Source of the DNA: an uncultured Acidobacteriota bacterium
GTDB taxonomy: Bacteria; Acidobacteriota; Vicinamibacteria; Vicinamibacterales; 2-12-FULL-66-21
Reading direction: 5' to 3'
Assembly (NCBI GenBank): GCA_963740275.1
Contig: CAVUDT010000002.1
Span: forward strand, 227,418-291,417
Length of the DNA stretch: 64,000 nt
Notes under the pieces: model-generated
What the model was told of the DNA's origin: nothing
Database searches by the model: none
The model's input: only the letters and a program-made list of their open reading frames with translations
In this document: piece after piece, positions 26,698 through 59,757 of the stretch
How the letters are laid out: each line of letters opens with the position of its first letter
Numbering within the stretch: the stretch's first letter is position 1
Made by a program: the position numbers and the translations under genes

Positions 26698-27642
26698 GTG
26701 TCATCCCGCCGCTTCTCGTTCATCGACCTTCTTCTGCTCCTGATGGCGATCATCTGGGGCACCAACTACTCCATCGTCAAGCGGGCGTTTCTCGAGATCG
26801 ACCCGCAGGTGTTCAACGCCGCGCGGATGGCCATGGCCTCGGTGGTCTTCCTGGTGATCATCGTGGCGGTGCGGGTCCGGGCCGCCCGGCGCGGCGCCGG
26901 TCAGGGGGCGAGCGTCGGTCTCGAGAGCATTTTCCTGACGCCCGAGCCGATCACGCCGCGCGACTGGCTCGCGCTGGCGGGTCTCGGGCTGGTCGGTCAT
27001 GCCGGCTATCAATACTTCTTCATCGGTGGTCTGGCACGGACCAGCGTGGCCAACAGCTCACTGATGCTGGCAGCGACTCCAGTGGTGATCGCGCTGATCA
27101 CCGCGGCGCTGGGGCAGGACCGCATCGGCCGGCTGCACTGGTTCGGCGCCGGCCTGTCGATCGCCGGCATCTACCTGGTCGTCGGGCACGGGGCGCCTGA
27201 AGGGGGCGCCAGCCTGGCGGGGGACGCGATGATGTTCGTGGCGGTCTGCTGCTGGGCGGTCTACACCCTCGGCGCGCGGCAGCTGATGCTGCGGCATTCC
27301 CCGGTCGGGGTCACCGGCCTGTCGATGGCGATCGGCACCGCCGTCTACGTGCCGCTGGTGATCGGCAAGGTCCGCGCAACCGACTGGAGCGGGCTGAGCA
27401 GCGGAACCTGGGTCTCGATCGTCTACTCGGCGTTGTTCGCGCTGTGCGTGGCCTACACCATCTGGTACATGGCGGTCCGGGAGATCGGCAGCGCGCGGAC
27501 GTCGGTCTACTCCAACCTGGTGCCGATCGTTGCGATGCTGACCGCGGTGATCTTCCTCGGCGAGGTCATGACTGTCTGGAGGGTCGCCGGTGCCGCTGCC
27601 GTCCTGCTGGGAGTGGGACTTACGAGGGTCCGGACGACCTGA
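26698..27642 (+). CDS. EamA/DMT-family transporter (10 TM)
   Basis: Two EamA-like halves. GTG start. Confidence 0.8.
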   Translation: MSSRRFSFIDLLLLLMAIIWGTNYSIVKRAFLEIDPQVFNAARMAMASVVFLVIIVAVRVRAARRGAGQGASVGLESIFLTPEPITPRDWLALAGLGLVGHAGYQYFFIGGLARTSVANSSLMLAATPVVIALITAALGQDRIGRLHWFGAGLSIAGIYLVVGHGAPEGGASLAGDAMMFVAVCCWAVYTLGARQLMLRHSPVGVTGLSMAIGTAVYVPLVIGKVRATDWSGLSSGTWVSIVYSALFALCVAYTIWYMAVREIGSARTSVYSNLVPIVAMLTAVIFLGEVMTVWRVAGAAAVLLGVGLTRVRTT

Positions 27643-27644
27643 AA

Positions 27645-27668
27645 GGTTCCAGGTTCCAGGTTCTGGGT
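27645..27668. repeat. heptamer tandem repeat, family 1 (GGTTCCA GGTTCCA GGTTCTG), 20 nt upstream of the desaturase start
   Basis: ggttccaggttccaggttctggg. Same family at 30588, 31183 (reverse) and 50292 (reverse). Confidence 0.55.
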
Positions 27669-27688: not shown

Positions 27689-28693
27689 ATGGAGCCTGTG
27701 AAAGACCACTATTATTCGCGCCACGCGGTCGCGCTGCGGGCCGAGCTGGGCGCGGCGATCACGCGCGAGCAGATGCGGCAGCTGCACCGGAAAAGCGCAG
27801 CCAGGCACCTGGTGATCGCAGCTCGTCAGTTTGCGATCCTGGCAGCCGGGACCTGGGGACTGATCCGGTTCGAGCATCCGCTCATCTGGATCCCGCTGGC
27901 GGTAATCCAGGGCTTCACGATCTTCAACTTCACCGTCCTGCTGCACGAGGTCGTGCACCACACGATCTTCGAGCGGCGCCATCCGGTGGCGGAACGCCTG
28001 CTGGGCTTCCTGTACGCGATCCCGAGCGGCATATCGGCAAGCCAGTTCACGCGGTGGCACCTGGACCATCACGCCGAGCTCGGGTCCGACGAAGACGATC
28101 CCAAGCGCGCCCACCTGTCGCCGAAGAAGAACGCGCGCTGGTACAAGCTGCTGTACTGCACCCCGGCGCTGTTTCCGATCTACTTCCGGGCCGCCCGCCT
28201 CGAAGCGGCGACCTACCCGGACGCGCTCCGCCGGAAGATCGCGTTCGAGCGCCAGCTGTCGATGGTCTTTCACTTCGGGGCGCTGGCGCTGCTCTGGTAT
28301 CTGTTCGGCTTCTACACCGCCGTGCGGGCCAGCATCGTGCCGGTGTTCTTCGTGTTCCCGATCGCCTTCACTCTCAACCGGCTGGGCCAGCACTACGACA
28401 TCGATCCGAGCGACCCGGCGAAGTGGGGCACGCTGATGCGCGGCAGCTGGTTCTGGGACTTCGCGTACCTGAACTCGAATTACCACCTCGAGCATCACTA
28501 TTTCCCGGGCGTGCCGTTCTATCGCCTGCCCGAGCTGCAGGTCGCGTTGCGGCCGTTCTACGAAAAGAAGCAGATGCGCTGGCGGACCTACGGCGAGCTC
28601 GTCTACGGATGGATCGTCGAGAACCACAAGCCCCACACCAACTGGGCCCAGTCAGACGTCGACCAGCACGCCAAAGACGCGGCGCGGGTCTAG
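27689..28693 (+). CDS. membrane fatty-acid desaturase (three His boxes)
   Basis: HEVVHH, HLDHH, HLEHH. Confidence 0.85.
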
Positions 28694-28835
28694 CAGCTTC
28701 CAGCTTCCAGCTGTCAGCTTCAATCTCAACTCCCAACTCCCAACTCCCAATCTCCAATTCGCGATCCCCAATCCGCAGTCCCCAATCCGCAGTCCCCAAT
28801 CCCCATCCCCCATTCCCGACAGCAATCCCCCACCC
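28694..28835. repeat. composite heptamer-periodic repeat, family 2: (CAGCTTC)n then (ACTCCCA / ATCCCCA / ATCCGCA)n, ~20 units, starting right after the desaturase stop
   Basis: cagcttccagcttccagctgtcagcttcaatctcaactcccaactcccaactcccaatctccaattcgcgatccccaatccgcagtccccaatccgcagtccccaatccccatccccc. Confidence 0.65.
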
Positions 28836-28858
28836 AGATTTACAGGTATTCTCAGCAG

Positions 28859-30587
28859 GTGCTCGCGAAAATTCTCGATTCCGGCCAGGACGAGCTGCTC
28901 AAGGAGGAGCGACGGGTCCTCACGCGTCTTCAGCTCGCGCTCGTGAAGTTCGACGCGGCGGCCGAGCACCGGGCGGCGCTCGAGCAATCCATCCACCAGC
29001 TGGATGAGCTCTTTCTGCTCGTGATCGTCGGTGAGTTCAACGCGGGCAAGAGCGCGTTCATCAACGCGCTGGTCGGGAGCCCGGTAGCGCAGGAAGGGGT
29101 GACGCCGACGACCGCCCAGATCAACGTGCTGCAGTACGGCGATCAGCCCGGACGGCAGGTCCGCGAAGACAACCTGCACATCATCACCGCCCCAGCCCCG
29201 ATCCTTCGCGACATCCACATCGTCGATACCCCGGGCACGAATGCGATCATCCGCGAGCACGAGGCGATCACCTCGGAGTTCGTGCCCCGGTCGGATCTCG
29301 TGCTGTTCGTGACCTCCGCCGACCGTCCGTTCACCGAGACCGAGCGGGCCTTTCTCGAGCAGATCCGCGGCTGGGGGAAGAAGGTCGTCATCGTCATCAA
29401 CAAGATCGACATCCTGGGCGGGGCCGGGGAGGTGGCCGAGGTCCGCACCTTCGTCGCCGACAACGCCCGCGCGCTGCTCGGATTCAGTCCGGAGGTCTTT
29501 CCGGTCAGCGCCCGGCTGGCGCTGCGGGCGAAGCAGGGGGACCCGGCATCCTGGGCGGCCAGCGGCTTCGAGGATCTCGAGCGATATATCGCGGCTACGC
29601 TCGACGCTCCGGGGCGGGTCCACCTCAAGCTGCTCAACCCGCTCGGTGTCGGCGCCGCGATCAGCGAGCGGCATGGCACGATCGTCCGCGAGCGCCTCGG
29701 CCTCCTGAAAGAGGACTTCACGACGCTCGAAGGGGTCGACCAGCAGCTGTCGGTCTACCAGGAGGACCTGACGCGGGACTTCGAGTTCCGCATGGCCGAT
29801 ATCGACAAGATCCTGCTCGAGATGGAGCGGCGCGGGCAGGACTATTTCGACGAGACCATCCGCATCGGCCGCGTGATGGACCTGCTGAACCGCAGCCGGA
29901 TCCAGCAGGGCTTCGAGCAGCAGGTCGTCGCCGACACGCCGCAGCAGATCGAGCGGAAGGTCGGGGAGCTGGTCGACTGGCTGGTGGCCGCGGATCTCCG
30001 CCAGTGGCAGGCGGTCACCACGCATCTCGCCGAGCGCCGGCGGCAGTATCAGAACCGGATCGTCGGCGAAGACTCCGGTCAGTTTCACTACGACCGCACC
30101 CGCATGATCGACGCCGTCAGCCGCGAGGCGCAGCGGGTGGTCGAGTCGTACGACAAGAAGCGCGAGGCCCAGCATGCTGGCCGACAACGCCCGGAACGCC
30201 GTCGCCGCGGCCGCGGCCGCCGGCGCGACCGCGCTCGGCCTCGGCGCCGTCATCACGTTCGCCGCCTCCACGGTCACCGCCGACTTCACCGGGATCGCGC
30301 TGGCCTCGCTGGTCGCCGCCCTGGGGTTCTTCATCCTGCCGGCCAAGCGCCAGAAGGCGAAGAACGAGATGCGCGAGAAGATCGCGGACGTGCGGAAGCG
30401 GCTGTCGGAGGCGCTGCGGAAGCAGTTTTCGACCGAGATCCAGCGCAGCGGCGACCGCATTCGAGAGAGCATCGCCCCATACAGCCGGTTCATCCGCGCC
30501 GAGGGGAACAAGCTGAAGGAAGTGGATGCGGAGCTGACCGAGATCAGCGCCGCGCTCGCCAGCCTCCGCGCCCGGATCGACTCTTGA
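28859..30587 (+). CDS. bacterial dynamin-like GTPase (BDLP/DynA-type) with a C-terminal membrane paddle; 1-nt frame shift near 30172
   Basis: G1 [17 protein letters not shown]3 DTPG, G4 INKID. C-terminal hydrophobic [33 protein letters not shown] plus coiled coil. Junction ...KKREAQ|[10 protein letters not shown]. Confidence 0.7.
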
Positions 30588-30610
30588 GGTTCCAGGTTCA
30601 GGTTCTAGGG
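30588..30610. repeat. heptamer tandem repeat, family 1, right after the dynamin stop
   Basis: ggttccaggttcaggttctaggg. Confidence 0.5.
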
Positions 30611-30882
30611 CAGTGCCGGGTGGTGACTTTCTACAAGAGGCCAGGAGTTCAAGAGGCCGTTTTTGAAAGAGTTTTCCTGATCTTCTGAGCTCCTGTTGAA
30701 GGATACCGAAGTCGCTGAACCCGGAACCGAGTGGCCTGTCGCGGCTGATTCAGTAGTGGCAGAAACAGAAGCACCGCTGAGCGCGCTGAGGGCGCAGAGA
30801 AGAACCGCCAGAAGAATCCTCTGCGCCGCTCTGCGGCCTTGCGGTGAGGGCTTTGTCGAGGGACTGATTCATCGAGGACGAG
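30605..30882 (-). pseudogene. decayed paralog of the small secreted protein (start codon out of frame after 3 single-nt indels)
   Basis: The signal-peptide frame ...GRRAAQRILLAVLLCALSALSGASVSA... has no start codon. The ATG-containing frame terminates after 40 aa. Confidence 0.35.
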
Positions 30883-31158
30883 CTACTGGCCCGACCGGAA
30901 CCAGGGACGTCCCGGGTGGTGGAGCGACAGAGGCCAGGAGTTCAAGAGGTCGTTTTTGAAAGAGTTTCCTGACTGCGATCTCCTGTTGAGGGCTGCGAAG
31001 TCTGAACCCGGAACCGAGTGGCCTGTCGCGGCTGATTCAGTAGTGGCAGAAACAGAAGCACCGCTGAGCGCGCCGAGGGCGCAGAGAAGAACCGCCAGAA
31101 GAATCCTCTGCGCCGCTCTGCGGCCTGCGGTGAGGTTTTGTCGAGGGTACTGATTCAT
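30883..31158 (-). CDS. small secreted protein, 91 aa, with a signal peptide
   Basis: MNQYPRQNLTAGRRAAQRILLAVLLCALGALSGASVSA|TTESAATGHS... The antisense + strand ORFs 30696-30959/30956-31153 lack such features. Confidence 0.5.
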   Translation of the reverse strand: MNQYPRQNLTAGRRAAQRILLAVLLCALGALSGASVSATTESAATGHSVPGSDFAALNRRSQSGNSFKNDLLNSWPLSLHHPGRPWFRSGQ

Positions 31159-31182
31159 CGAGGACGAGCCACTGGACCCGAA

Positions 31183-31207
31183 GAACCCGGAACCCGGAAC
31201 CTGGAAG
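31183..31207. repeat. heptamer tandem repeat, family 1 (reverse orientation), between flotillin and the small secreted-protein gene
   Basis: gaacccggaacccggaacctggaag. Confidence 0.5.
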
Positions 31208-35265: not shown

Positions 35266-35330
35266 CCCATGCCCCATCCCCCATTCCCCATCCCCGATTC
35301 CCCGACTCCCCATCCCCCCGACCCCGATTG
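35266..35330. repeat. heptamer tandem repeat, family 2 (CCCCATC/CCCCATT/CCCGATT...), in the divergent promoter region
   Basis: cccatgccccatcccccattccccatccccgattccccgactccccatccccccgaccccgattg. Confidence 0.6.
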
Positions 35331-35334
35331 ATAT

Positions 35335-35358
35335 AGAGTCTGTCTTTATATAGACTCT
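35335..35358. promoter_or_regulatory. inverted repeat AGAGTCT-N10-AGACTCT, 7 nt upstream of the PadR start; candidate PadR autoregulatory operator
   Basis: agagtctgtctttatatagactct; AT-rich spacer in an otherwise GC-rich region. Confidence 0.4.
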
Positions 35359-35364
35359 CTGCCC

Positions 35365-35698
35365 ATGGAACCGCTCCACGGACTGCTGGACATGCTGGTG
35401 CTGCAAACGCTGATCCTCGGGCCGTTGCACGGGTACGGCATTGCCAAGTCCATCCACGACAGGTCCGATGAAGCCCTGGCGATCGAGTTCGGTTCACTCT
35501 ATCCGGCGCTGAAGCGCCTCGAGCTCAAGGGCTGGATCGCGTCGAAGTGGGACCTGTCCGAGCACAACCGGCGGGCCAAGTACCTATCGGCTCACGCCGG
35601 CAGGCAGAAAAAAGCTTCGGCAAGAGCAGTCAGACTGGCAGCATTTCGCCTCGGCCATCACCCGGGTCATGAAGATCGTACCGGAGGGCCAGTCATGA
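35365..35698 (+). CDS. PadR-family transcriptional regulator; 1-nt frame shift near 35588
   Basis: LDMLVLQTLILGPLHGYGIAKSI...GSLYPALKRLELKGWI...NRRAKY|YRLTPAGRKKLRQEQSDWQHF... The stop overlaps the permease start (ATGA). Confidence 0.7.
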
Positions 35699-38439
35699 CC
35701 ATCTGGAAAAAGCTCCTGCTCCTGTTGCCCTCCCGCCGTCGCGCCGCAGAGCGCGACATGCAAGAAGAACTTGAATCACTCCGGGACATGGCCGAGCCTC
35801 ACGAGCTCGGTAACCTGACGCTCGTCGCCGAGGACGGGCGCGCGACGTGGAGCTGGAGGTGGCTCGAACACCTGGGGCAGGACCTGCGCTACGCACGGCG
35901 TTCCATGCTCCACGACAAGACCTTCACCGCGCTGGCCGCGCTCTCGCTCGCGCTGGGGATCGGTGCCAACACCGCGATCTACAGCTTCACCGAGTCGATT
36001 CTGCTGCGGTCCTTGCCGGTATCGGAGCCGGAAGCCCTTGTGATCATGACGTGGCGGGCCCGGTCGTCGTACACGTCCGCCGCGTCCAGCGGAATGTCGT
36101 TCTCCACCGGGGGCAGCTACAGCGATCCGACGGAAGGCTACATCGGCAGCCAGTTTTCCTATCCCGCCCTCGAGATCTTCCAGCGCAACACCGATGTGCT
36201 GTCGAGTGCGTTCTGCTACTTCGTCGCAGATCGTCTGCATCTCACGATCGACGACGCAACCGAAGTCGTTCGCGGGCAATACGTGTCGGGCAGCTACTTC
36301 AGCGGAATGGGAGTGCCGCCTGCCGCCGGGCGTCTCATCCTGGCGGGCGACGACGAGGAGGGCGCCGCGAGTGTCGCCATTCTCAGCCATCGCTTCAGCC
36401 AGCTCCGATTCGGAGACGCCCGGCAGGCCGTCGGCCGGACCGTGCGAATCAATGACAAGCCGTTCTCGGTGGTTGGCGTGACCCCGCCGGGTTTTTTTGG
36501 CGCAGAGCCGGGGTCGGTGCCCGACGTCTTCGTTCCGATGCATGCCCAGGCGGTTATCGAGTCCGCCGGGGTGATGACCAGCACACTGAACCGCAATCAC
36601 CTCAATCCGAACTACTACTGGATCGAGATCATGGGTCGGCTCGCGCCAGGCGTGAGCCTCGCGCAGGCACAGGCCGTGCTCGCGCCCCAGTTTCGAAGAT
36701 TCGTCGACGCGACTGCGACAACGGAACGGCAGCGCACGAATCTCCCGGATCTGAGGATCACAGACGGCTCGGCGGGTCTCGATAGCATCCGGCGGCGTTA
36801 TGCGAAGCCGGTATTCGTGTTGATGACGATGGCCGGGCTCATTCTGCTCATTGCCTGCGCCAACCTCGCCAACCTTCTGCTCGCGCGCGCCATGTCACGG
36901 CGGCGCGAGATCGCCGTTCGGCTCAGCATCGGCGCCAGCCGGATGCGCATCGTCCGGCAGATGCTGACCGAGAGCGTACTGCTGTCCTCGATTGGTGGTC
37001 TGCTCGGTGTCCTCTGCGCATGGTGGGGCATCCGCGTGCTTACAGCCCTGCTCGCCAGCGGTCGCGAGAACTTCACGCTGCATGCCGAGTTGAACTGGCA
37101 TGTGCTGGCCGCGACTTTCGCACTGTCGGTGTTGACCGGCTTGTTGTTCGGGTCGGTGCCCGCCCTTCAAGCCACCCGCGTTGATGTGATGCCCGCCTTG
37201 AAGCAGAGCAGGACGGCCACCGTGGCGGCGCCCCCCAGGCCTCGTCGTATCGGGTTGAGCCAAACGCTCGTCGTCGCGCAGATCGCCTTCTCGCTCGTGT
37301 TGCTCGTCGCCGCGGGGCTGTTCGGAGGCACGCTATCGAGGCTGCATGCCATCGAGACCGGGTTCAATCGGGAGGACGTCCTGCTGTTTACAGTCAGAGC
37401 CACGTCGGCCGGTTATGAGGGACCGGCGTTGACCCGTGTCTATGAAGACTTGCGAGGACGATTGCAACCGGTACCGGGGGTTGTCAGTGTCAGCCTCTCC
37501 AGTCGGGCGCTGCCGGCGGGAGGAGGCACGATGTCGCGGGTGACGGTGGTCGGCGCGCCACCGGCGCCTCCACCTGTTGCCGGCGAGCGTCCGCCAGACT
37601 ACGCCGGCTTGTTGAGCGTCGGGCCGGCGTTCTTCGAGACCATGCAGATCCCGCTGACGGCCGGGCGCGAGTTCGATGAGCGCGACGTCGCGGGCGCGAC
37701 TCGCGTGGCGATCGTCAATCAGAAGCTCGCCACGGTGCTGGGCCTCAGAAACCCGGTTGGCACGAGAATCATCACCGGTGGCGGCCGCGCCGCGATCGAG
37801 TATGAGATCGTCGGGGTAGTCGGAGACGCGCTCTTTCTGAAACTCAAAGACGAGCAAAGGCCGATGGTCTACTTTTCGTACGTGCAGGATTCGCCGCCAT
37901 GGTCCATGACCTACGAGGTGCGTTCTGCCGGCCATCCGCTGGCGCTTGCCAACACCGTCCGCCAGATCGTCCGCCAGATCGATCCGCGCCTCGCGGTGTC
38001 AGATGTGAAGACGCAGGCGGTACACATCGACCAGGGGATCAGTCAGGAGATCGCGCTCGCACGGCTGTGCACGGTGTTCGCGGGGCTGGCGCTCGTCATC
38101 GCGTGTGTCGGCCTGTATGGAACGGTCGCGTTCAATGTCAGCCGACGCGTCGTCGAGATCGGGGTTCGCATGGCGCTCGGCGCTCAGCGCGCCGGGATCG
38201 TGTGGCTGATCCTTCGCTCGGTGCTGATCCTCGAGCTGCTCGGACTCGCGATCGGCGTGCCGATCGTTCTGCTCGGATCGCGCTACGTTGAGTCGCTGTT
38301 GTTCGGCATCAAGCCGAACGACCCGTTGGTCGTCTCGGCCGGCGTGGCCGCCCTGCTCAGCGCGGGCCTGGTGGCCAGCTACGTGCCGGCGCGACGCGCC
38401 TCGAGCGTCGATCCGATGGTCGCTTTGCGTAACGAGTAG
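35695..38439 (+). CDS. ADOP-family duplicated FtsX/MacB-type permease (915 aa), intact
   Basis: N-terminus MTIWKKLLLLLPSRRRAAERDMQEELESL...LGQDLRYARRSMLHDKTFT... Two FtsX-like 4-TM bundles (…LIACANLANLLLARA… and …IACVGLYGTVAFNVSRR…). Confidence 0.85.
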   Translation: MTIWKKLLLLLPSRRRAAERDMQEELESLRDMAEPHELGNLTLVAEDGRATWSWRWLEHLGQDLRYARRSMLHDKTFTALAALSLALGIGANTAIYSFTESILLRSLPVSEPEALVIMTWRARSSYTSAASSGMSFSTGGSYSDPTEGYIGSQFSYPALEIFQRNTDVLSSAFCYFVADRLHLTIDDATEVVRGQYVSGSYFSGMGVPPAAGRLILAGDDEEGAASVAILSHRFSQLRFGDARQAVGRTVRINDKPFSVVGVTPPGFFGAEPGSVPDVFVPMHAQAVIESAGVMTSTLNRNHLNPNYYWIEIMGRLAPGVSLAQAQAVLAPQFRRFVDATATTERQRTNLPDLRITDGSAGLDSIRRRYAKPVFVLMTMAGLILLIACANLANLLLARAMSRRREIAVRLSIGASRMRIVRQMLTESVLLSSIGGLLGVLCAWWGIRVLTALLASGRENFTLHAELNWHVLAATFALSVLTGLLFGSVPALQATRVDVMPALKQSRTATVAAPPRPRRIGLSQTLVVAQIAFSLVLLVAAGLFGGTLSRLHAIETGFNREDVLLFTVRATSAGYEGPALTRVYEDLRGRLQPVPGVVSVSLSSRALPAGGGTMSRVTVVGAPPAPPPVAGERPPDYAGLLSVGPAFFETMQIPLTAGREFDERDVAGATRVAIVNQKLATVLGLRNPVGTRIITGGGRAAIEYEIVGVVGDALFLKLKDEQRPMVYFSYVQDSPPWSMTYEVRSAGHPLALANTVRQIVRQIDPRLAVSDVKTQAVHIDQGISQEIALARLCTVFAGLALVIACVGLYGTVAFNVSRRVVEIGVRMALGAQRAGIVWLILRSVLILELLGLAIGVPIVLLGSRYVESLLFGIKPNDPLVVSAGVAALLSAGLVASYVPARRASSVDPMVALRNE

Positions 38440-44090: not shown

Positions 44091-46949
44091 ATGCGCATTC
44101 GGCAGCAGCTTCTGTTCGCATTCACCGCCGTGGCGCTCGCCTGCAGTGCCGGCGTGGTCGGCGCCCGGCAGCAGGCCGTGCCGGCGGCGCCCGTCACCTC
44201 GACTGCCGCAACCGCGGCGCTCGACCAGCCGGTGCCGCTCGACCCGGCGATCACCGCCGGCCGGTTCGAGAACGGTCTTCGTTACTTCATTCGCAAGACC
44301 CGGCGTCCGGAACAGCGTGCCGAACTGAGGCTGGTCGTCGATGTCGGCTCGATCGTCGAAGAAGACGACCAGCGCGGGCTGGCGCACTTCGTCGAGCACA
44401 TGGCCTTCAACGGCACGAAGAACTTTCCCAAGCAGGAGACGGTGACCTTTCTCGAATCGCTGGGCATGCGGTTCGGCCCGAGCATCAATGCGTCCACCAG
44501 CTTCGACGAGACCGTCTACATGCTGCAGGTGCCGACGGAAAAGCCCGAGGTCCTGGACCGGGCCTTCCTGATCCTGGAGGACTGGGCGCACGGGGTGACG
44601 TTCGACCCGGCCGAGATCGACAAGGAGCGCGGCGTGATCCGGGAAGAGTGGCGCATCCGGCGCGGCGCCGGCGCCCGCATGCAGGACAAGCAGCTGCCGG
44701 TCATGCTGAAGGGCTCCCGCTACGCCGACCGCATCCCCATCGGCACGATGGCGGTGATCGACAACTTCAAGCACGAGCGGCTGACCCAGTTCTACCGGGA
44801 CTGGTACCGGCCGGATCTCATGACCGTCGTGGCGGTCGGGGACTTCGATCCACCCGCGGTCGAGAAGATGATCAAGGCCCACTTCGAGCCGATCCCGGCG
44901 GCAAAGACGCCCAGACCGCGTCCGAGCTATCCGGTGGCCGATCATCCGGGCACGCTCTACGCTATCGCCACCGACGCCGAGGCGCAGTCCGCCACGATCA
45001 ACGTCCAGAGCAAGATGCCGCTGCGCGATCCGCGCTCGGTCGGCGCCCAGCGCGGAGACATCGTCGAACGTCTCTTCAGCAGCATGCTCGGCGCTCGCTT
45101 CGCCGAGCTGGCGCAGAGGCCGGATGCGCCGTTTATCGCCGCCGGCGCCGGGCGCGGCCTTTTCGTCCGGACGAAGTCGTTGTCTACCCTGAGCGCGGTC
45201 GCCAAGGGGAACGCCATCGACAAGACGCTGGAGGTGCTGTTCACGGAAACAGAACGGGTGGCGCGGTTCGGGTTCACGCCGGGTGAGCTGGAACGCACGA
45301 AGTCGAACCTGCTGAACAGCTTCGAACGAGCGGTGAACGAGAGGGAAAATACCCTGGCTGCGTCGCTGGCCAACGAGCTGGTGCGGCACGTCACCGCCCG
45401 CGAACCGGTGCCGGGGATCGTGTATGAGACCGCGCTGTATCGGCGCTTTCTGCCGGAGATCACCCTGACGGAGGTGAACGCGCTCGCCCGCGACTGGGCT
45501 CCCGACCGCAGCCGGGTCATCACCGTCAGCGCCCCTGAGAAACCGGGGATTGCGGTCCCCGACGAGAAGGCGTTGGCGGCGGTGATCGCGTCGATTCCCG
45601 GCCGGGAGATCACCGCCTACGTCGATACCGTCAATTCCACGCCGCTGCTCGAGACGCTTCCCCCACCGGGCGCGGTCGTCAGCACCGACACGAAACCGGC
45701 TTTCGGCATCACCGAATGGAAGCTGGCGAACGGCGTCAAGGTGGTGCTCAAGCCGACCGACTTCAGGGCCGACGAGATCCTGTTCCGCGCGATCAGCTAC
45801 GGCGGTTCCTCGCAGGCCTCCGACGCCGACTTCGTGCCGGCCAGCAGCGCCGCGATGGTCATGGGCGCCGGCGGCATCGGCCAGTTCAGCCTGGTCGACG
45901 TCCGCAAGAAGCTGACGGGCAAGTCGGCCGGGGTCACGGCGTTCATCACCGACTACGAGGAGGGGCTGACCGGTAATTCGTCGAGGAAGGACCTGGAAAC
46001 GATGTTCCAGCTGCTTCACCTGCGCTTCACCCAGCCGCGCGCGGACCCCAATGCGTTCCGGATCATGCAGGTGCAGATGAAATCCCAGCTGCCGCTGCAG
46101 CGCGGCAACCCGGCATTTCTCTTCGCCGAGGCCCTGACCGCGGCCCTGCGCGGGAACCACCTGCGGTCGAGACTCGGCACCATGGAGCAGGTCGAGCAGA
46201 TGAACCTCGAGAAGTCGCTGGCGTTCTACAAGGACCGCTTTGGCGACGCCGGCGACTTCACCTTCGTGTTCGTCGGCAACTTCACCCTCGACGAGCTGAA
46301 GCCGCTGGTCGAGCGATATATCGGGTCGCTGCCGGCTACCGGCCGCAAGGAGACGTGGAAGGACACCGGCCAGCGCTACGCCCGCGGGGTGATCGAGAAG
46401 CGGGTGGAGAAGGGGCTGGAGCCGAAGAGCCAGGCGGCGATCGTCTTCACCGGTGACTTCAAGTACGTCCAGGAACAGCGGGTGGCGATCACCGCGCTCA
46501 ACGAGGTGCTCCAGGCGCGGCTCCACGAGACGCTGCGCGAGGATCTCGGCGGCACCTACGGGGTCACCTCGTCGGTGAACTACCTCCGCATTCCGGTGCC
46601 GGAGTACACGATCACCGTCAGTTTCAGCTGTGCCCCGGAACGCACCGAGGAGCTCGTCAAGGCGGTCTTCCAGCAGGTGGAGCGGTTGAAGGCCGAGGGG
46701 CCGGCGGAGACGCAGGTCACCGACGCCCGGGAAAAGCTGCTGCGCGACTACGAGACCAATCGGAAGCAGAACGGCTACTGGGTGACGCAGCTGGCAGGAC
46801 GATACCAGTCAGGGGAGCCGGTCGATTCGCTGTTCGGGATGTTGGAGCACTACCGGCAGATCACGCCGGCGATGATCCGCGATGCCGCCAGGCTGTACCT
46901 GAACCCCGCCAACCATGTGACGGTGACGCTGTTCCCGGGGATCAAATGA
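44091..46949 (+). CDS. secreted two-domain M16-family zinc metallopeptidase (insulinase/pitrilysin-like)
   Basis: Signal MRIRQQLLFAFTAVALACSAGVVGA. HxxEH box GLAHFVEHMAFNG. Second inactive M16 half. GGAGG SD before ATG 44091. Confidence 0.85.
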   Translation: MRIRQQLLFAFTAVALACSAGVVGARQQAVPAAPVTSTAATAALDQPVPLDPAITAGRFENGLRYFIRKTRRPEQRAELRLVVDVGSIVEEDDQRGLAHFVEHMAFNGTKNFPKQETVTFLESLGMRFGPSINASTSFDETVYMLQVPTEKPEVLDRAFLILEDWAHGVTFDPAEIDKERGVIREEWRIRRGAGARMQDKQLPVMLKGSRYADRIPIGTMAVIDNFKHERLTQFYRDWYRPDLMTVVAVGDFDPPAVEKMIKAHFEPIPAAKTPRPRPSYPVADHPGTLYAIATDAEAQSATINVQSKMPLRDPRSVGAQRGDIVERLFSSMLGARFAELAQRPDAPFIAAGAGRGLFVRTKSLSTLSAVAKGNAIDKTLEVLFTETERVARFGFTPGELERTKSNLLNSFERAVNERENTLAASLANELVRHVTAREPVPGIVYETALYRRFLPEITLTEVNALARDWAPDRSRVITVSAPEKPGIAVPDEKALAAVIASIPGREITAYVDTVNSTPLLETLPPPGAVVSTDTKPAFGITEWKLANGVKVVLKPTDFRADEILFRAISYGGSSQASDADFVPASSAAMVMGAGGIGQFSLVDVRKKLTGKSAGVTAFITDYEEGLTGNSSRKDLETMFQLLHLRFTQPRADPNAFRIMQVQMKSQLPLQRGNPAFLFAEALTAALRGNHLRSRLGTMEQVEQMNLEKSLAFYKDRFGDAGDFTFVFVGNFTLDELKPLVERYIGSLPATGRKETWKDTGQRYARGVIEKRVEKGLEPKSQAAIVFTGDFKYVQEQRVAITALNEVLQARLHETLREDLGGTYGVTSSVNYLRIPVPEYTITVSFSCAPERTEELVKAVFQQVERLKAEGPAETQVTDAREKLLRDYETNRKQNGYWVTQLAGRYQSGEPVDSLFGMLEHYRQITPAMIRDAARLYLNPANHVTVTLFPGIK

Positions 46950-47097
46950 TTGCGGATTGGGGATTGCGGATTGTTGACTGACGGATTGTAGATTGGGGAT
47001 TGTGGATTGATGGTCGAAGCGCTTGCAATCAACACTCGACAATCCCAATCCGCGATCCCTAATCCGTCGATCAGCAATCCGCGATCCCCAATCCGCA
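46949..47097. repeat. ~150-bp imperfect palindrome built from family-2 heptamers (GATTGCG/GATTGGG arm, centre AAGCGCTT, then CCCAATC/CCGCAATC arm) between convergent genes
   Basis: gattgcggattggggattgcggattg...gattggggattgtggattg | tcgaagcgcttgcaatc | caatcccaatccgcgatccctaatccg...caatccgcgatccccaatccgc. Confidence 0.7.
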
Positions 47098-50291: not shown

Positions 50292-50354
50292 CCTGAACGA
50301 AACTCAGAACTCAGAACTCAGCATCCAGAACCTGGAACCCAGAACCTAGAACCT
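50292..50354. repeat. heptamer tandem repeat, family 1 (reverse orientation, ~8 units), in the divergent promoter region
   Basis: aactcagaactcagaactcagcatccagaacctggaacccagaacctagaacctga. Confidence 0.6.
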
Positions 50355-50421
50355 GATGAGCCCCCCTGTCAAGGCAGCGAGTGCTAAGATGCCGGCTTCA
50401 ACCCCGCAAGGAGATCATCAA

Positions 50422-51555: not shown

Positions 51556-51567
51556 CGGCATGGCAAA

Positions 51568-51627
51568 GGGAAATGGCAGATGGTAGAAAGCGGCTAACAG
51601 TCGCCCGTCTACCATCTACCATTTCCC
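51568..51627. terminator. 20-bp-stem hairpin between convergent genes (candidate bidirectional terminator, no clear U-tract)
   Basis: gggaaatggcagatggtaga-N20-tctaccatctaccatttccc (one mismatch). Confidence 0.35.
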
Positions 51628-51638
51628 ATCACCATTAC

Positions 51639-52190
51639 TTACTTGATCGTCCAGAGATAGACGTTGCGGCCGTCGACGTCGATCGTCTTTTCCGGCGGCC
51701 ACTGCTCGCCCATGCTGAAACTCTGTGACACCACACGCGTGCCTGGCTTCAGCTCTTTCTGAAGTTTCGGCATCAGCTTGATGTTGAGCGACTGCAGCAG
51801 GTAGAGGGTGACCACCGTGGCGTCCTTGATGTCGGCCTCGAACAGGTCTCCCTGCCGGATCTCGACCTTGTCGGAGACCCCCATCTTCTGGGCGCGCTCG
51901 GTGGCTTCCTTGACGCGCTGCGGGTCGATGTCGATCCCGACGGCGCGCGCGCCGTACTTCTGTGCCGCCGTCGCGACGATGACGCCGTCGCCACAGCCGA
52001 GGTCGTAGACCACATCGGTCGGCTTGACGTCGGCCAGCTTCAGCATGGCGTCGACGACCGCGGGAGGTGTCGGCACCCAGTGAATGTCGGGCCGCCGCAG
52101 CGGCGCCTGGGTCTGCGCCTGCTGCGCCGCAATCGGCAGAACGGAGACCACCGCCGCCAGAAGGATCGCCGCAATCACTCGAAATCTCAT
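51639..52190 (-). CDS. class I SAM-dependent methyltransferase with an N-terminal signal peptide
   Basis: MRFRVIAAILLAAVVSVLPIAAQQ then motif I VVYDLGCGDGVIV. Confidence 0.7.
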   Translation of the reverse strand: MRFRVIAAILLAAVVSVLPIAAQQAQTQAPLRRPDIHWVPTPPAVVDAMLKLADVKPTDVVYDLGCGDGVIVATAAQKYGARAVGIDIDPQRVKEATERAQKMGVSDKVEIRQGDLFEADIKDATVVTLYLLQSLNIKLMPKLQKELKPGTRVVSQSFSMGEQWPPEKTIDVDGRNVYLWTIK

Positions 52191-52192
52191 CA

Positions 52193-52288
52193 GTTCAGCT
52201 CCTAGTCAAGCTGTCAGCTCTCAGCCCTCAGCTATCAGCAAATCCTCAAACACCAATCACCGATCCGCAGTCCCCATCCCCCATCCCC
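52193..52288. repeat. composite heptamer-periodic repeat, family 2 (CAGCTNN units then CACCAAT/CCGCAGT/CCCCATC units)
   Basis: cagttcagctcctagtcaagctgtcagctctcagccctcagctatcagcaaatcctcaaacaccaatcaccgatccgcagtccccatcccccatcccc. Confidence 0.6.
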
Positions 52289-52861
52289 TCAGTAACCCAT
52301 TTCCCGCTGAATCCCTCTGACTATACGTTCGAGCTCTTCGACCAGCTTACCGCCGCCGGCATGCCGGAAGGCGCGCACCAGCCCTTCGTAGTAGGCGATC
52401 ACGTCGTCGGCGGGCGCGTTGAACCGGTCCCAGACCTCCTCGCCGGTGTTCCGCAGGTCCCGCAGGATCGCGTAGGAATTGTGCACCTTGTCGGCCGCCG
52501 CCACTCGCAGGCTGGGGGCAGGAAGCGCACGGGCGTGTTCGATGTAGTCGCGCTTGCGATCGATCCAGGGACGCTTGGGCGTTTCCCACGAGTCGGTGCA
52601 GTCTTCGACGATGCGGGCGACCGGCTCGCCGAAGCGGGCGCGGATCTCCTCGAGCCGCGGGCGCCCGCCATGATCCTCGGCGGCGTCGTGCAGCAGCGCG
52701 CCAATCGCTTCGTCCTCGGTGCCGCCGTCGTCGATCACGATCGACGCGACACCCAACAGGTGACCGACGTACGGGGAGCCGTTGCCTTTTCGCCGCTGCT
52801 GGCGATGCACGTCGTGCGTGTATTTCAGGGCGTCATCGAACCGGGCGGTGAGCTCCGTCAT
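52289..52861 (-). CDS. HD-domain metal-dependent phosphohydrolase
   Basis: ...YVGHLLGVA...LLHDAAEDHGG... Confidence 0.7.
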   Translation of the reverse strand: MTELTARFDDALKYTHDVHRQQRRKGNGSPYVGHLLGVASIVIDDGGTEDEAIGALLHDAAEDHGGRPRLEEIRARFGEPVARIVEDCTDSWETPKRPWIDRKRDYIEHARALPAPSLRVAAADKVHNSYAILRDLRNTGEEVWDRFNAPADDVIAYYEGLVRAFRHAGGGKLVEELERIVRGIQREMGY

Positions 52862-57623: not shown

Positions 57624-57765
57624 CATTGCGGATCAGGGGATTGCGGATTGCCGATCGACGGATCTTTGATCGTGGATTGGAGCGCCGAATCAGCATCCCA
57701 ATCAAGAATCCAAAATCCCCAATCCGTCAATCAGCAGTCCGCAATCCACAATCCGCAATCCGCAA
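57624..57765. repeat. ~140-bp imperfect palindrome of family-2 heptamers between convergent ProX and typA genes
   Basis: cattgcggatcaggggattgcggattgcc...gtggattgg | agcgccgaatcagc | atcccaatcaagaatccaaaatccccaatccgtcaatc...caatccacaatccgcaatccgcaac. Confidence 0.7.
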
Positions 57766-59664: not shown

Positions 59665-59732
59665 GATGAATGCTGAAGTAAAGGGGAAATGCTGAAGTAT
59701 CTGAGTCCTTGCCCCTTATTTCAGCATTCAAC
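59665..59732 (-). terminator. ~18-bp-stem imperfect hairpin between the OMP gene and typA (candidate terminator or typA 5'-UTR structure)
   Basis: gaatgctgaagtaaagggg...ccccttatttcagcattc. Confidence 0.3.
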
Positions 59733-59757
59733 ATTCAGCCCTCAGCCTTGCGGAGGG

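Follow-up and report, generated by a model that had tools for sequence, protein, structure and literature searches.

The question raised by this 64,000-nt stretch of DNA from an uncultured Acidobacteriota bacterium (contig CAVUDT010000002.1, positions 227,418 to 291,417; hereafter the window) is how a run of about 20 consecutive 7-mers came to lie between two co-directional genes, encoding a fatty-acid desaturase and a dynamin-family GTPase, and whether it does anything there. The run, which we call the focal array, covers 142 nt (28694-28835), and its first base directly follows the TAG stop codon of the desaturase gene (28691-28693). Comparison of this sequence with those of its relatives leads us to propose, with a probability of roughly 0.7, that the focal array is a heptanucleotide microsatellite that was born and remodelled in place by slippage, of the same kind as the short tandemly repeated repetitive (STRR) sequences of cyanobacteria and the GGGNATC repeats.

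The unit list given in the initial annotation, with its 7-mers starting immediately 3′ of the desaturase stop, was reproduced exactly. From 28694 the order is CAGCTTC, CAGCTTC, CAGCTGT, CAGCTTC, AATCTCA, ACTCCCA, ACTCCCA, ACTCCCA, ATCTCCA, ATTCGCG, ATCCCCA, ATCCGCA, GTCCCCA, ATCCGCA, GTCCCCA, ATCCCCA, TCCCCCA and TTCCCGA, followed by a degenerate end. The parts of the array, as delimited by the sequence and by Tandem Repeats Finder (TRF), are:

28694-28721, plus strand: block 1, four CAGCTTC units including one variant, CAGCTGT (sequence, TRF).
28722-28757, plus strand: block 2, AATCTCA, three ACTCCCA and ATCTCCA (TRF unit CAACTCC), transitional between blocks 1 and 3 (TRF).
28758-28817, plus strand: block 3, CCCCAAT, CCGCAGT and CCCCAT units, which read GGGGATT and GCGGACT on the minus strand (TRF, sequence).
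28818-28835, plus strand: the degenerate tail, CCGACAG CAATCCC CCAC (sequence).

TRF reports three period-7 rows, CAGCTTC repeated 4.0 times (28694-28721), CAACTCC 4.0 times (28727-28755) and CCCAATC 9.4 times (28746-28810), together with a period-14 row at 28727-28817. When the 142 nt are compared with themselves at a lag of 7, the self-match is 0.689, against 0.333 +/- 0.039 and a maximum of 0.489 in 5000 dinucleotide-preserving shuffles; the best value for any other 142-nt stretch of the window is 0.578, so that the focal array is the highest. Head-to-tail units running beyond chance length place it among the heptanucleotide long simple sequence repeats (LSSR). Including the focal one, the window holds 11 heptamer arrays; its G+C content is about 66%, and 7 is its sole enriched repeat period.

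The plus strand of the focal array is rich in C and poor in G (70 C, 13 G and 32 A among the 142 bases), and it includes the 78 nt with the strongest C/G skew anywhere in the window (41 C, 6 G). The initial annotation had gone further and called the strand pyrimidine-only, free of G for more than 60 nt; the longest G-free run is in fact 43 nt (28718-28760), and the A residues are numerous. The sense RNA is predicted to be unstructured (folding z = -0.84); if transcribed and left untranslated, it would resemble a Rho utilization (rut) site, which takes some 70-80 nt or more of such RNA with C well above G, in a clade where the two orientations are split 59:58 (see below). On the minus strand there are 11 runs of at least three G and a canonical G-quadruplex (G4) motif at 28794-28817, in block 3, and the predicted minimum free energy structure of that strand includes a G4 (-49.3 against -38.0 kcal/mol, with RNA parameters). 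The suggestion that non-B DNA could form here is supported by this prediction and by the G4 and i-motif formation shown in vitro for units of the same type (PMC4692102).

We found no hairpin and T-run site of an intrinsic (Rho-independent) terminator within 28694-28858, no sigma-70-like promoter in the desaturase-GTPase spacer, and no inverted repeat there either (best score 6). Rfam 15 gave no match at the gathering threshold in the whole window and none at E <= 1 in 28600-28950. No stop triplet occurs in any sense frame of the focal array; the spacer (28694-28858) is 165 nt, or 55 codons, and the desaturase frame is open from its TAG into the GTPase frame, so that read-through of the TAG would yield a fusion protein. 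This open frame is probably a by-product of stop-free units, with the two frames matching by a 1-in-3 chance.

A wider census covered 80 loci found with the desaturase, all in metagenome-assembled genomes of Vicinamibacterales / Acidobacteriota subgroup 6, with 66-87% amino acid identity and 1.41 Mb in total. Genes were called with a simple caller of our own, based on a codon-usage score trained on long open reading frames (ORFs; 88% coding), and TRF was run on all 1.41 Mb. Although only 12% of the bases are non-coding, 141 of the period-7 rows with a TRF score of at least 40 are intergenic, as against 20 in coding sequence (p~1e-106). All other intergenic periods are far rarer than 7, the next being 14 (58 rows), 8 (36), 9 (29) and 10 (24). 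The clade holds 175 intergenic arrays, about 124 per Mb, which occupy about 15% of the spacers of at least 20 nt and have a median length of 36 nt with a mode of 4-5 units; in length the focal array ranks sixth. Their share of spacers does not differ significantly between co-directional (14.8%), convergent (18.9%) and divergent (11.7%) neighbours. One candidate from the census, a conserved 347-nt "spacer" that resembled an RNA gene, was rejected when it proved to be part of an apparently frameshifted BipA/TypA gene (L046:14219-16075) missed by the gene caller.

The units themselves are highly diverse, with more than 100 canonical heptamers in one order. A and T are clustered within units (AAT/ATT 54 against 21 expected; GAA/TTC 69 against 29 expected), and CTGA (49 of 186 units against 14 expected, the top class), CAGC, AATC, GGAT and GAAC are over-represented, as are units containing GGA (59 against 38.5 expected). 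Only 13% of the arrays contain a canonical G4 motif, and many units lack any G/C skew. This diversity, together with the low share of G4-capable arrays, indicates that the common denominator is the 7-nt period and not a sequence.

Turnover among relatives points to the way in which such arrays arise. The synteny of desaturase and GTPase is kept in more than 30 loci, yet the orthologous spacer is mostly without an array, and where arrays are present they use unrelated units (CAGGGAT, GGAACCC, CGAACCG, CGCCAAC, CAGCCAG, GCACCCC). The closest relatives, with 85-88% GTPase identity, carry short C-rich arrays of GCACCCC, GCATCCC or GGACCCC units on the same strand and at the same spot. Genome pairs whose flanks are 90-97% identical show indels of about 14, 28 or 42 nt in their arrays, and in other close pairs an array in one genome faces a single seed 7-mer in its partner. 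This comparison of copy number is drawn from genome pairs at other loci, the nearest GTPase relatives in Joint Genome Institute (JGI) metagenomes being at most 88% identical; an exact 27-mer of the conserved leader that precedes the GTPase gene had no match in the JGI metagenomes. Indels in multiples of about 7 nt, and seeds opposite arrays, argue for slippage in situ with re-amplified variant units and not for insertion, and re-amplification of variant units would give composites like the focal array. When arrays were compared, among them the focal array and a similar composite at 52193-52288, neither their ends nor the flanks outside the repeats proved to be conserved. The two have about 30 nt in common, ATCCGCAGTCCCCA(A)TCCCCCATCCCC. 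The focal array was also considered as a repetitive extragenic palindromic (REP) sequence, a bacterial interspersed mosaic element (BIME) or a miniature inverted-repeat transposable element (MITE), and these identities were rejected: it has no inverted repeat and an unstructured RNA, arrays grow from local seeds, and conserved flanks are absent.

The distribution of arrays in the window had been described in the initial annotation as that expected of an element that acts on RNA 3′ ends or is inserted in an orientation-dependent way, and a genome-wide census of orientation relative to flanking genes had been put forward as a check. In our 80 related loci that census gave a divided answer. Copies are common, but they are oriented at random with respect to transcription: among arrays in co-directional spacers, 59 are G-rich and 58 C-rich on the sense strand. 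Nor was a strand preference relative to transcription significant for CTGA, CAGC, AATC, GGAT, GAAC, GGA or stop triplets. Random orientation and the lack of a motif strand preference argue against both a one-orientation element at RNA 3′ ends and orientation-dependent insertion, and the close relatives, with their steps of about 7 nt from local seeds, give no sign of insertion. It had further been stated that convergent neighbours go with palindromes and all others with a single orientation. Within the window this holds: inverted pairs were confirmed in three of the four convergent spacers (46948-47096, 57625-57765 and 51564-51635), and every co-directional or divergent array is a single arm. 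Across the clade the rule fails, as inverted pairs occur in 35 of 140 array-bearing spacers, comprising 24 of 97 co-directional, 8 of 24 convergent and 3 of 19 divergent ones (Fisher p=0.44).

What is not random is the coupling of orientation with position. Arrays with a G-rich sense strand lie near the upstream stop more often than near the downstream start (33 against 6, at a median of 5 nt) and those with a C-rich sense strand lean to the downstream start (24 against 16), the two distributions differing with p=6e-5. Over all spacer classes, the nearer of the two flanking ORFs is the one 5′ of the G-rich strand in 92 of the 131 skewed arrays, a ratio of 92:39 (p=4e-6). A stop codon lies no more than 3 nt from 58 of 178 array edges and a start codon equally close to 14 of 172, although start positions are approximate and this contrast is the less secure for it. 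In the focal array the G-tract block is the one nearest to the GTPase start, on the non-coding strand and 41 nt away when measured from the TRF end, and with its 3′ side the whole array also adjoins the desaturase stop. A role as an all-frame stop signal, in which heptamers carrying TGA, TAG or TAA would close all frames over a run of three units, was rejected as a general explanation: arrays have about twice the frequency of stop triplets seen in array-free spacers, but alike on both strands (0.037 against 0.033, p=0.45), and the focal sense strand has none. In several relatives arrays overlap the last 9-43 nt of the gene before them (L015:505-551, L024:5897-5960, L048:1847-1981, L017:13783-13866 and others), and there the repeat units provide the C-terminal residues and the stop codon (e.g. 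CCAGTAG, TCCTTAA).

We favour the following scheme, in which the origin and turnover of arrays are shown by the comparison of relatives and the later steps are proposals. A local 7-mer is amplified in place, and replication slippage makes the array grow, shrink and diversify; variant units are amplified in turn, giving composites such as CAGCTTC to CAACTCC to CCCCAAT. Arrays pile up in the unconstrained part of the spacer, typically between the first base past a stop codon and the promoter or ribosome-binding region of the following gene. A selective filter on placement is indicated by the coupling of position and orientation: purifying selection may act against G-rich RNA close 5′ of start codons, where it could serve as a Shine-Dalgarno decoy or form an initiation-blocking G4, and such avoidance would explain why G-rich-sense arrays sit at stops and C-rich-sense arrays, including the focal one, near downstream starts. 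As a consequence the desaturase mRNA would gain at its 3′ end about 140 nt of C-rich, G-poor RNA, neither translated nor structured and close to ideal in composition for Rho loading, and the template strand may fold into a G-quadruplex. If the focal array has any effect, the most plausible would be to separate or insulate the transcription unit of the desaturase from that of the GTPase, and paired inverted arms elsewhere could act as bidirectional terminators or 3′-end protectors.

Several points weigh against this interpretation. Passive slippage gives no reason for a step of 7 nt over one of 5, 6 or 8. The presence of same-strand C-rich heptamers at the same spot in the closest relatives could reflect constraint rather than drift. 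On the G-strand of three composite arrays (focal, 52193-52288 and L001:12893-12981) the G-rich block precedes a block of the GAAGCTG type, and units are shared between spacers of one genome about three times as often as across genomes (14% against 4.6%, p=7e-8). A further concern is that gene boundaries come from a simple gene caller, with start codons especially approximate.

An alternative that we consider unlikely is that the arrays are selected, direction-specific insulators or terminators. RNA polymerase leaving the nearest gene would transcribe the G-rich strand and be stopped by a G4, an R-loop or, where there are two arms, a hairpin, and in the other direction the untranslated, unstructured C-rich RNA would load Rho; the focal array would then end desaturase transcripts through Rho and block antisense transcription leaving the GTPase gene. 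The polarity fits, as for 92 of the 131 skewed arrays, whatever the spacer class, the G-strand read 5′ to 3′ points away from the closest ORF, and so does the share of array edges within 3 nt of a stop codon, one third against 8% for start codons. The focal array is the most C-rich and G-poor stretch of the window, its RNA is unstructured, a template-strand G4 is predicted and its spacer has no canonical intrinsic terminator, the folding z-scores of the paired arrays are -13 and -7, and the Xanthomonas repeats are mostly transcribed (PMC4692102). Avoidance of G-rich RNA in 5′ leaders is, however, a simpler explanation of the same polarity, and arrays that are canonically G4-capable in just 13% of cases, often built from units without G/C skew, oriented 59:58 and absent from most orthologous spacers are not what selected terminators would lead one to expect; Rehm et al. 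did not identify a regulatory role for theirs (PMC4692102). More speculative, and in our view rather improbable, is a sequence-agnostic system with a 7-nt register, in which an active generator or reader (a polymerase or repair step of 7 nt, or a heptad-binding protein) would make and keep arrays at ORF ends with a fixed polarity, the G-strand leading away from the gene and the G-rich block coming before that of the GAAGCTG type, and with genome-specific dialects, as a direction-specific boundary of transcription units in a lineage without canonical intrinsic terminators at these sites.

A related proposal would make the arrays multivalent platforms for a protein that reads the 7-nt register, either an RNA binder of the CsrA, S1 or cold-shock type or a nucleoid-associated DNA binder, with unit dialects that track its specificity in each genome. 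A strict period with a varying sequence, the clustering of A and T in units, the frequency of GGA units (59 against 38.5) and the sharing of units within genomes are in its favour, and S1, cold shock proteins (Csp) and CsrA have been proposed for the TAACTGA repeats (MacGregor 2015, PMC4679880). We nevertheless find it quite doubtful: more than 100 canonical units in one order are ill-suited to a single binding specificity, the lack of a motif strand preference speaks against a reader at the RNA level, gain and loss at orthologous sites are rapid, and no candidate protein was identified. That small mobile elements akin to MITE, REP or BIME have been dispersed into spacers is very improbable. 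This would account for the recurrence of unit families at 3-5 loci in the window and within genomes generally, for inverted pairs that look like REP/BIME palindromes and for the 30 nt or so common to two composite arrays, but the close relatives show growth from a local 7-mer and indels of about 7n nt in place of a defined insertion, termini and flanks are not conserved, and the units are far more diverse than those of a transposed family. Equally hard to credit is a phase-variation locus in which 7-bp steps alter promoter spacing or leader length and so switch GTPase expression. Fast copy-number change between relatives and a location 24-41 nt 5′ of the GTPase start, beside a conserved promoter-proximal motif, are what such a locus should have, and heptamer repeats of this kind reportedly feature in MLVA strain-typing schemes for Xanthomonas; yet the array lies upstream of that motif and not between promoter elements, and arrays at about 124 per Mb occur beside all kinds of housekeeping genes, mostly abutting stops and not promoters, the ground on which Rehm et al. 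also rejected this explanation (PMC4692102). Slippage in place, followed by a filter on placement, thus appears to us the best account.

The genes and leader that flank the focal array are as follows:

27689-28693, plus strand: fatty-acid desaturase gene, stop TAG 28691-28693 (Pfam PF00487, E=2.2e-33; gene call).
28836-28858, plus strand: non-repeat leader AGATTTACAGGTATTCTCAGCAG (sequence, ortholog comparison).
28859-30587, plus strand: dynamin-family GTPase gene with a GTG start, a frame shift between 30175 and 30249, and its true stop TGA at 30585-30587 (Pfam Dynamin_N, E=6.4e-25; tblastn).

A desaturase start at 27590 is possible, with that at about 27689 favoured by the coding score and by orthologs that match from residue 35-37 or so. 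GTPase orthologs begin ATGCTGACGAAG at the position equivalent to the GTG at 28859, and the gap between the end of the focal array and this GTG is about 24-41 nt (41 from the TRF end). The leader is kept in the closest relatives as TTTTTGCAGGTATTCTCAGC. Of 45 orthologous loci, 15 (among them L026, L047, L057, L094-L104, L142 and L148) have a sigma-54-type motif, TGGY-N7-8-TGCW, 11-17 nt before the GTPase start, and TGGCCC-N5-TTTGCG variants occur in further loci; in the more distant relatives the motif stands at the position of the leader. The copy in the window (CCCAGATTTACAGG) is without both the GG and the GC dinucleotides, and the GTPase promoter may here have changed or decayed.

The GTPase gene is split over two frames. 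The ortholog at L001 aligns with 28859-30175 and, in another frame, with 30249-30581, both at about 86% identity. The break falls in or near a GC-rich GCCGCG/18-mer repeat (30198-30233), and an indel in the assembly and a recent frameshift are the two explanations for it; the apparent ORF end at 30688 is accordingly wrong, the true stop being the TGA at 30585-30587. Between the GTPase gene and a flotillin-like gene lies a tandem duplication of about 290 nt (30610-31190), of which 125 nt are 99% identical and the remainder 79-97% with small indels. On the minus strand its second copy encodes a small protein of about 91 residues with a signal-peptide-like segment (MNQYPRQNLTAGRRAAQRILLAVLLCALGALSGASVSA...), a frame that is disrupted in the first copy.

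The other ten arrays of the window are:

27644-27664, plus strand: three AGGTTCC units, 1 nt past the stop of an EamA transporter gene (TRF).
30587-30609, plus strand: AGGTTCC-type array of 3.4 units, directly past the GTPase stop (TRF).
31183-31206, minus strand: GGTTCCG/GGTTCCA array, 4 nt past the stop of the flotillin-like gene (TRF).
35266-35330, plus strand: CCCCATC-type single-arm array about 35-100 nt 5′ of a PadR-MacB fusion gene, with a minus-strand G4 motif at 35266-35325 (TRF, G4 scan).
46948-47096, both arms: inverted pair of GCGGATT/GGGGATT units between convergent M16 peptidase (plus) and amidohydrolase (minus) genes, hairpin dG -98.9 kcal/mol, z=-13 (TRF, folding).
50301-50355, plus strand: three AACTCAG then four AGAACCT units, a single arm in a divergent spacer (TRF).
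51564-51635, both arms: weaker inverted pair of the GGTAGAT / ATCTACC type between convergent genes (TRF).
52193-52288, plus strand: composite of a CAGCTNN and then a CCCCATC block that makes up the whole spacer between two minus-strand genes and abuts the stop of an HD-domain gene at 52289-52291 (TRF).
57625-57765, both arms: inverted pair of the GCGGATT type between convergent YbaK-like (plus) and BipA (minus) genes, hairpin dG -68.3 kcal/mol, z=-7.2 (TRF, folding).
59720-59746, plus strand: short single-arm array of the TTCAGCA type between two minus-strand genes (TRF).

Three unit families recur in the window, GGATTGN / CCCCAAT at five loci, AGGTTCC at four and CAGCTNN at three, and array edges at 27644, 30587, 31183, 46948, 47096, 52288 and 57765 lie 0-4 nt past a stop codon. 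The initial annotation was right that the two-block layout of the focal array, CAGCTNN and then CCCCATC, recurs at 52193-52288 and that CCCCATC-type units stand alone at 35266-35330. An AGGAG sequence resembling a Shine-Dalgarno site, 9 nt 5′ of a methyltransferase ATG, falls inside a GGAGCTG unit (52188-52210). Directly downstream of the array at 35266-35330, and 5′ of the PadR-MacB/FtsX fusion gene (35365-38439), an inverted repeat AGAGTCT...AGACTCT at 35335-35358 within ATATAGAGTCTGTCTTTATATAGACTCT looks like a PadR autoregulatory operator. The window contains no tRNA genes.

Heptamer repeats have been noticed repeatedly, as STRR in 1990, as LSSR in 2007 and as G4 and TAACTGA repeats in 2015. 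Our literature searches found no earlier paper on heptamer repeats in Acidobacteria or Vicinamibacteria. With about 124 arrays per Mb, an abundant uncultured soil lineage, from a phylum apparently without an earlier report, joins the repeat-rich groups. The contrast to the earlier cases speaks for a mutational process specific to this period, acting together with a filter on position, and against G4 formation as the unifying feature. For annotation, the arrays mark the ends of coding regions and can seed assembly or frameshift problems.

Among the known systems the STRR heptamers of heterocystous cyanobacteria, reportedly described by Mazel et al. in 1990 with STRR1 (CCCCAGT) as an example, are close in kind. 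They belong to low-GC filamentous cyanobacteria, where they have been used as lineage-specific fingerprinting targets. As here, each genome has several families of tandem heptamers scattered through its non-coding DNA, and the focal array contains units like CCGCAGT/CCCCAGT. Since the host in our case belongs to the Vicinamibacterales and units arise locally, the likeness is one of kind and not of lineage, and common descent is unsupported. REP and BIME elements are extragenic palindromes of enterobacteria. The inverted pairs at 46948-47096 and 57625-57765 resemble them in lying between convergent genes, in their very stable predicted hairpins and in that they could terminate transcription or protect 3′ ends; in contrast, the arms here are tandem 7-mers of variable unit and length, and the focal array is single-armed and free of hairpins.

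TAACTGA heptamers are found between genes in marine Beggiatoaceae, cyanobacteria and Bacteroidetes (MacGregor 2015, PMC4679880), and Geobacter metallireducens has the heptanucleotide elements MTYCTGA and GGACCGG (PMC2700814). Both form short arrays in spacers, and units with CTGA are also the top over-represented class in our clade; the earlier cases differ in having one dominant unit per genome, mainly just 5′ of start codons in the Beggiatoaceae, whereas here there are many units, mainly just past stop codons. According to the summaries in PMC4679880 and PMC4692102, the LSSR of Mrázek 2007 (units of 5-11 nt) have heptanucleotides as the most common long-unit simple sequence repeat, and a 7-nt contact with DNA polymerase was proposed to favour slippage. 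The abundance of heptamers, their enrichment in large high-GC genomes of non-pathogens and the exclusion from coding sequence of units that are not multiples of 3 agree with our findings. Acidobacteria are not among the repeat-rich taxa that these summaries name, and the slippage model, as they present it, leaves the coupling of position with orientation and the sharing of units within genomes unexplained.

A match in unit sequence exists with the repeats of Rehm et al. 2015 (PMC4692102), GGGAATC in Xanthomonas and GGGGA(C/T)T in Nostoc PCC 7120; the introduction to that paper also cites the report on STRR from Calothrix PCC 7601. Those repeats are intergenic, lie nearer to the ORF 5′ of the G-strand, frequently form convergent inverted pairs and vary in length between related genomes; they form G4 and i-motif structures in vitro, most of the Xanthomonas repeats are transcribed, and a regulatory role was not found. 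On its G-strand block 3 of the focal array reads GGGGATT/GCGGACT, equal to the Nostoc unit, and the core unit of the GGGNATC / GGGGA(C/T)T repeats, a tract of 3-4 G and then A(T/C)T or ATC in two or more tandem copies, is present on the minus strand of 28758-28817 (GGGGATT, GGGGACT, GCGGATT) and absent from blocks 1 and 2. Our arrays share with them the intergenic location, the placement 5′ of the G-strand (92:39), inverted pairs, variation in length and sequence, a mode of about 4-5 units, a C-rich complement and a G-strand capable of forming G4, which in our case is predicted. They differ in their host, an Acidobacteriota lineage of about 66% GC, in being G4-capable in only 13% of cases, in the composite arrays of several unit families, and in the more than 100 other heptamers (CAGCTTC, AGGTTCC, GAACCCT, GACGTGC and others) that behave alike. 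That the same placement rule applies although most units are not G4-capable makes G4 formation unlikely as the property that unites these repeats.

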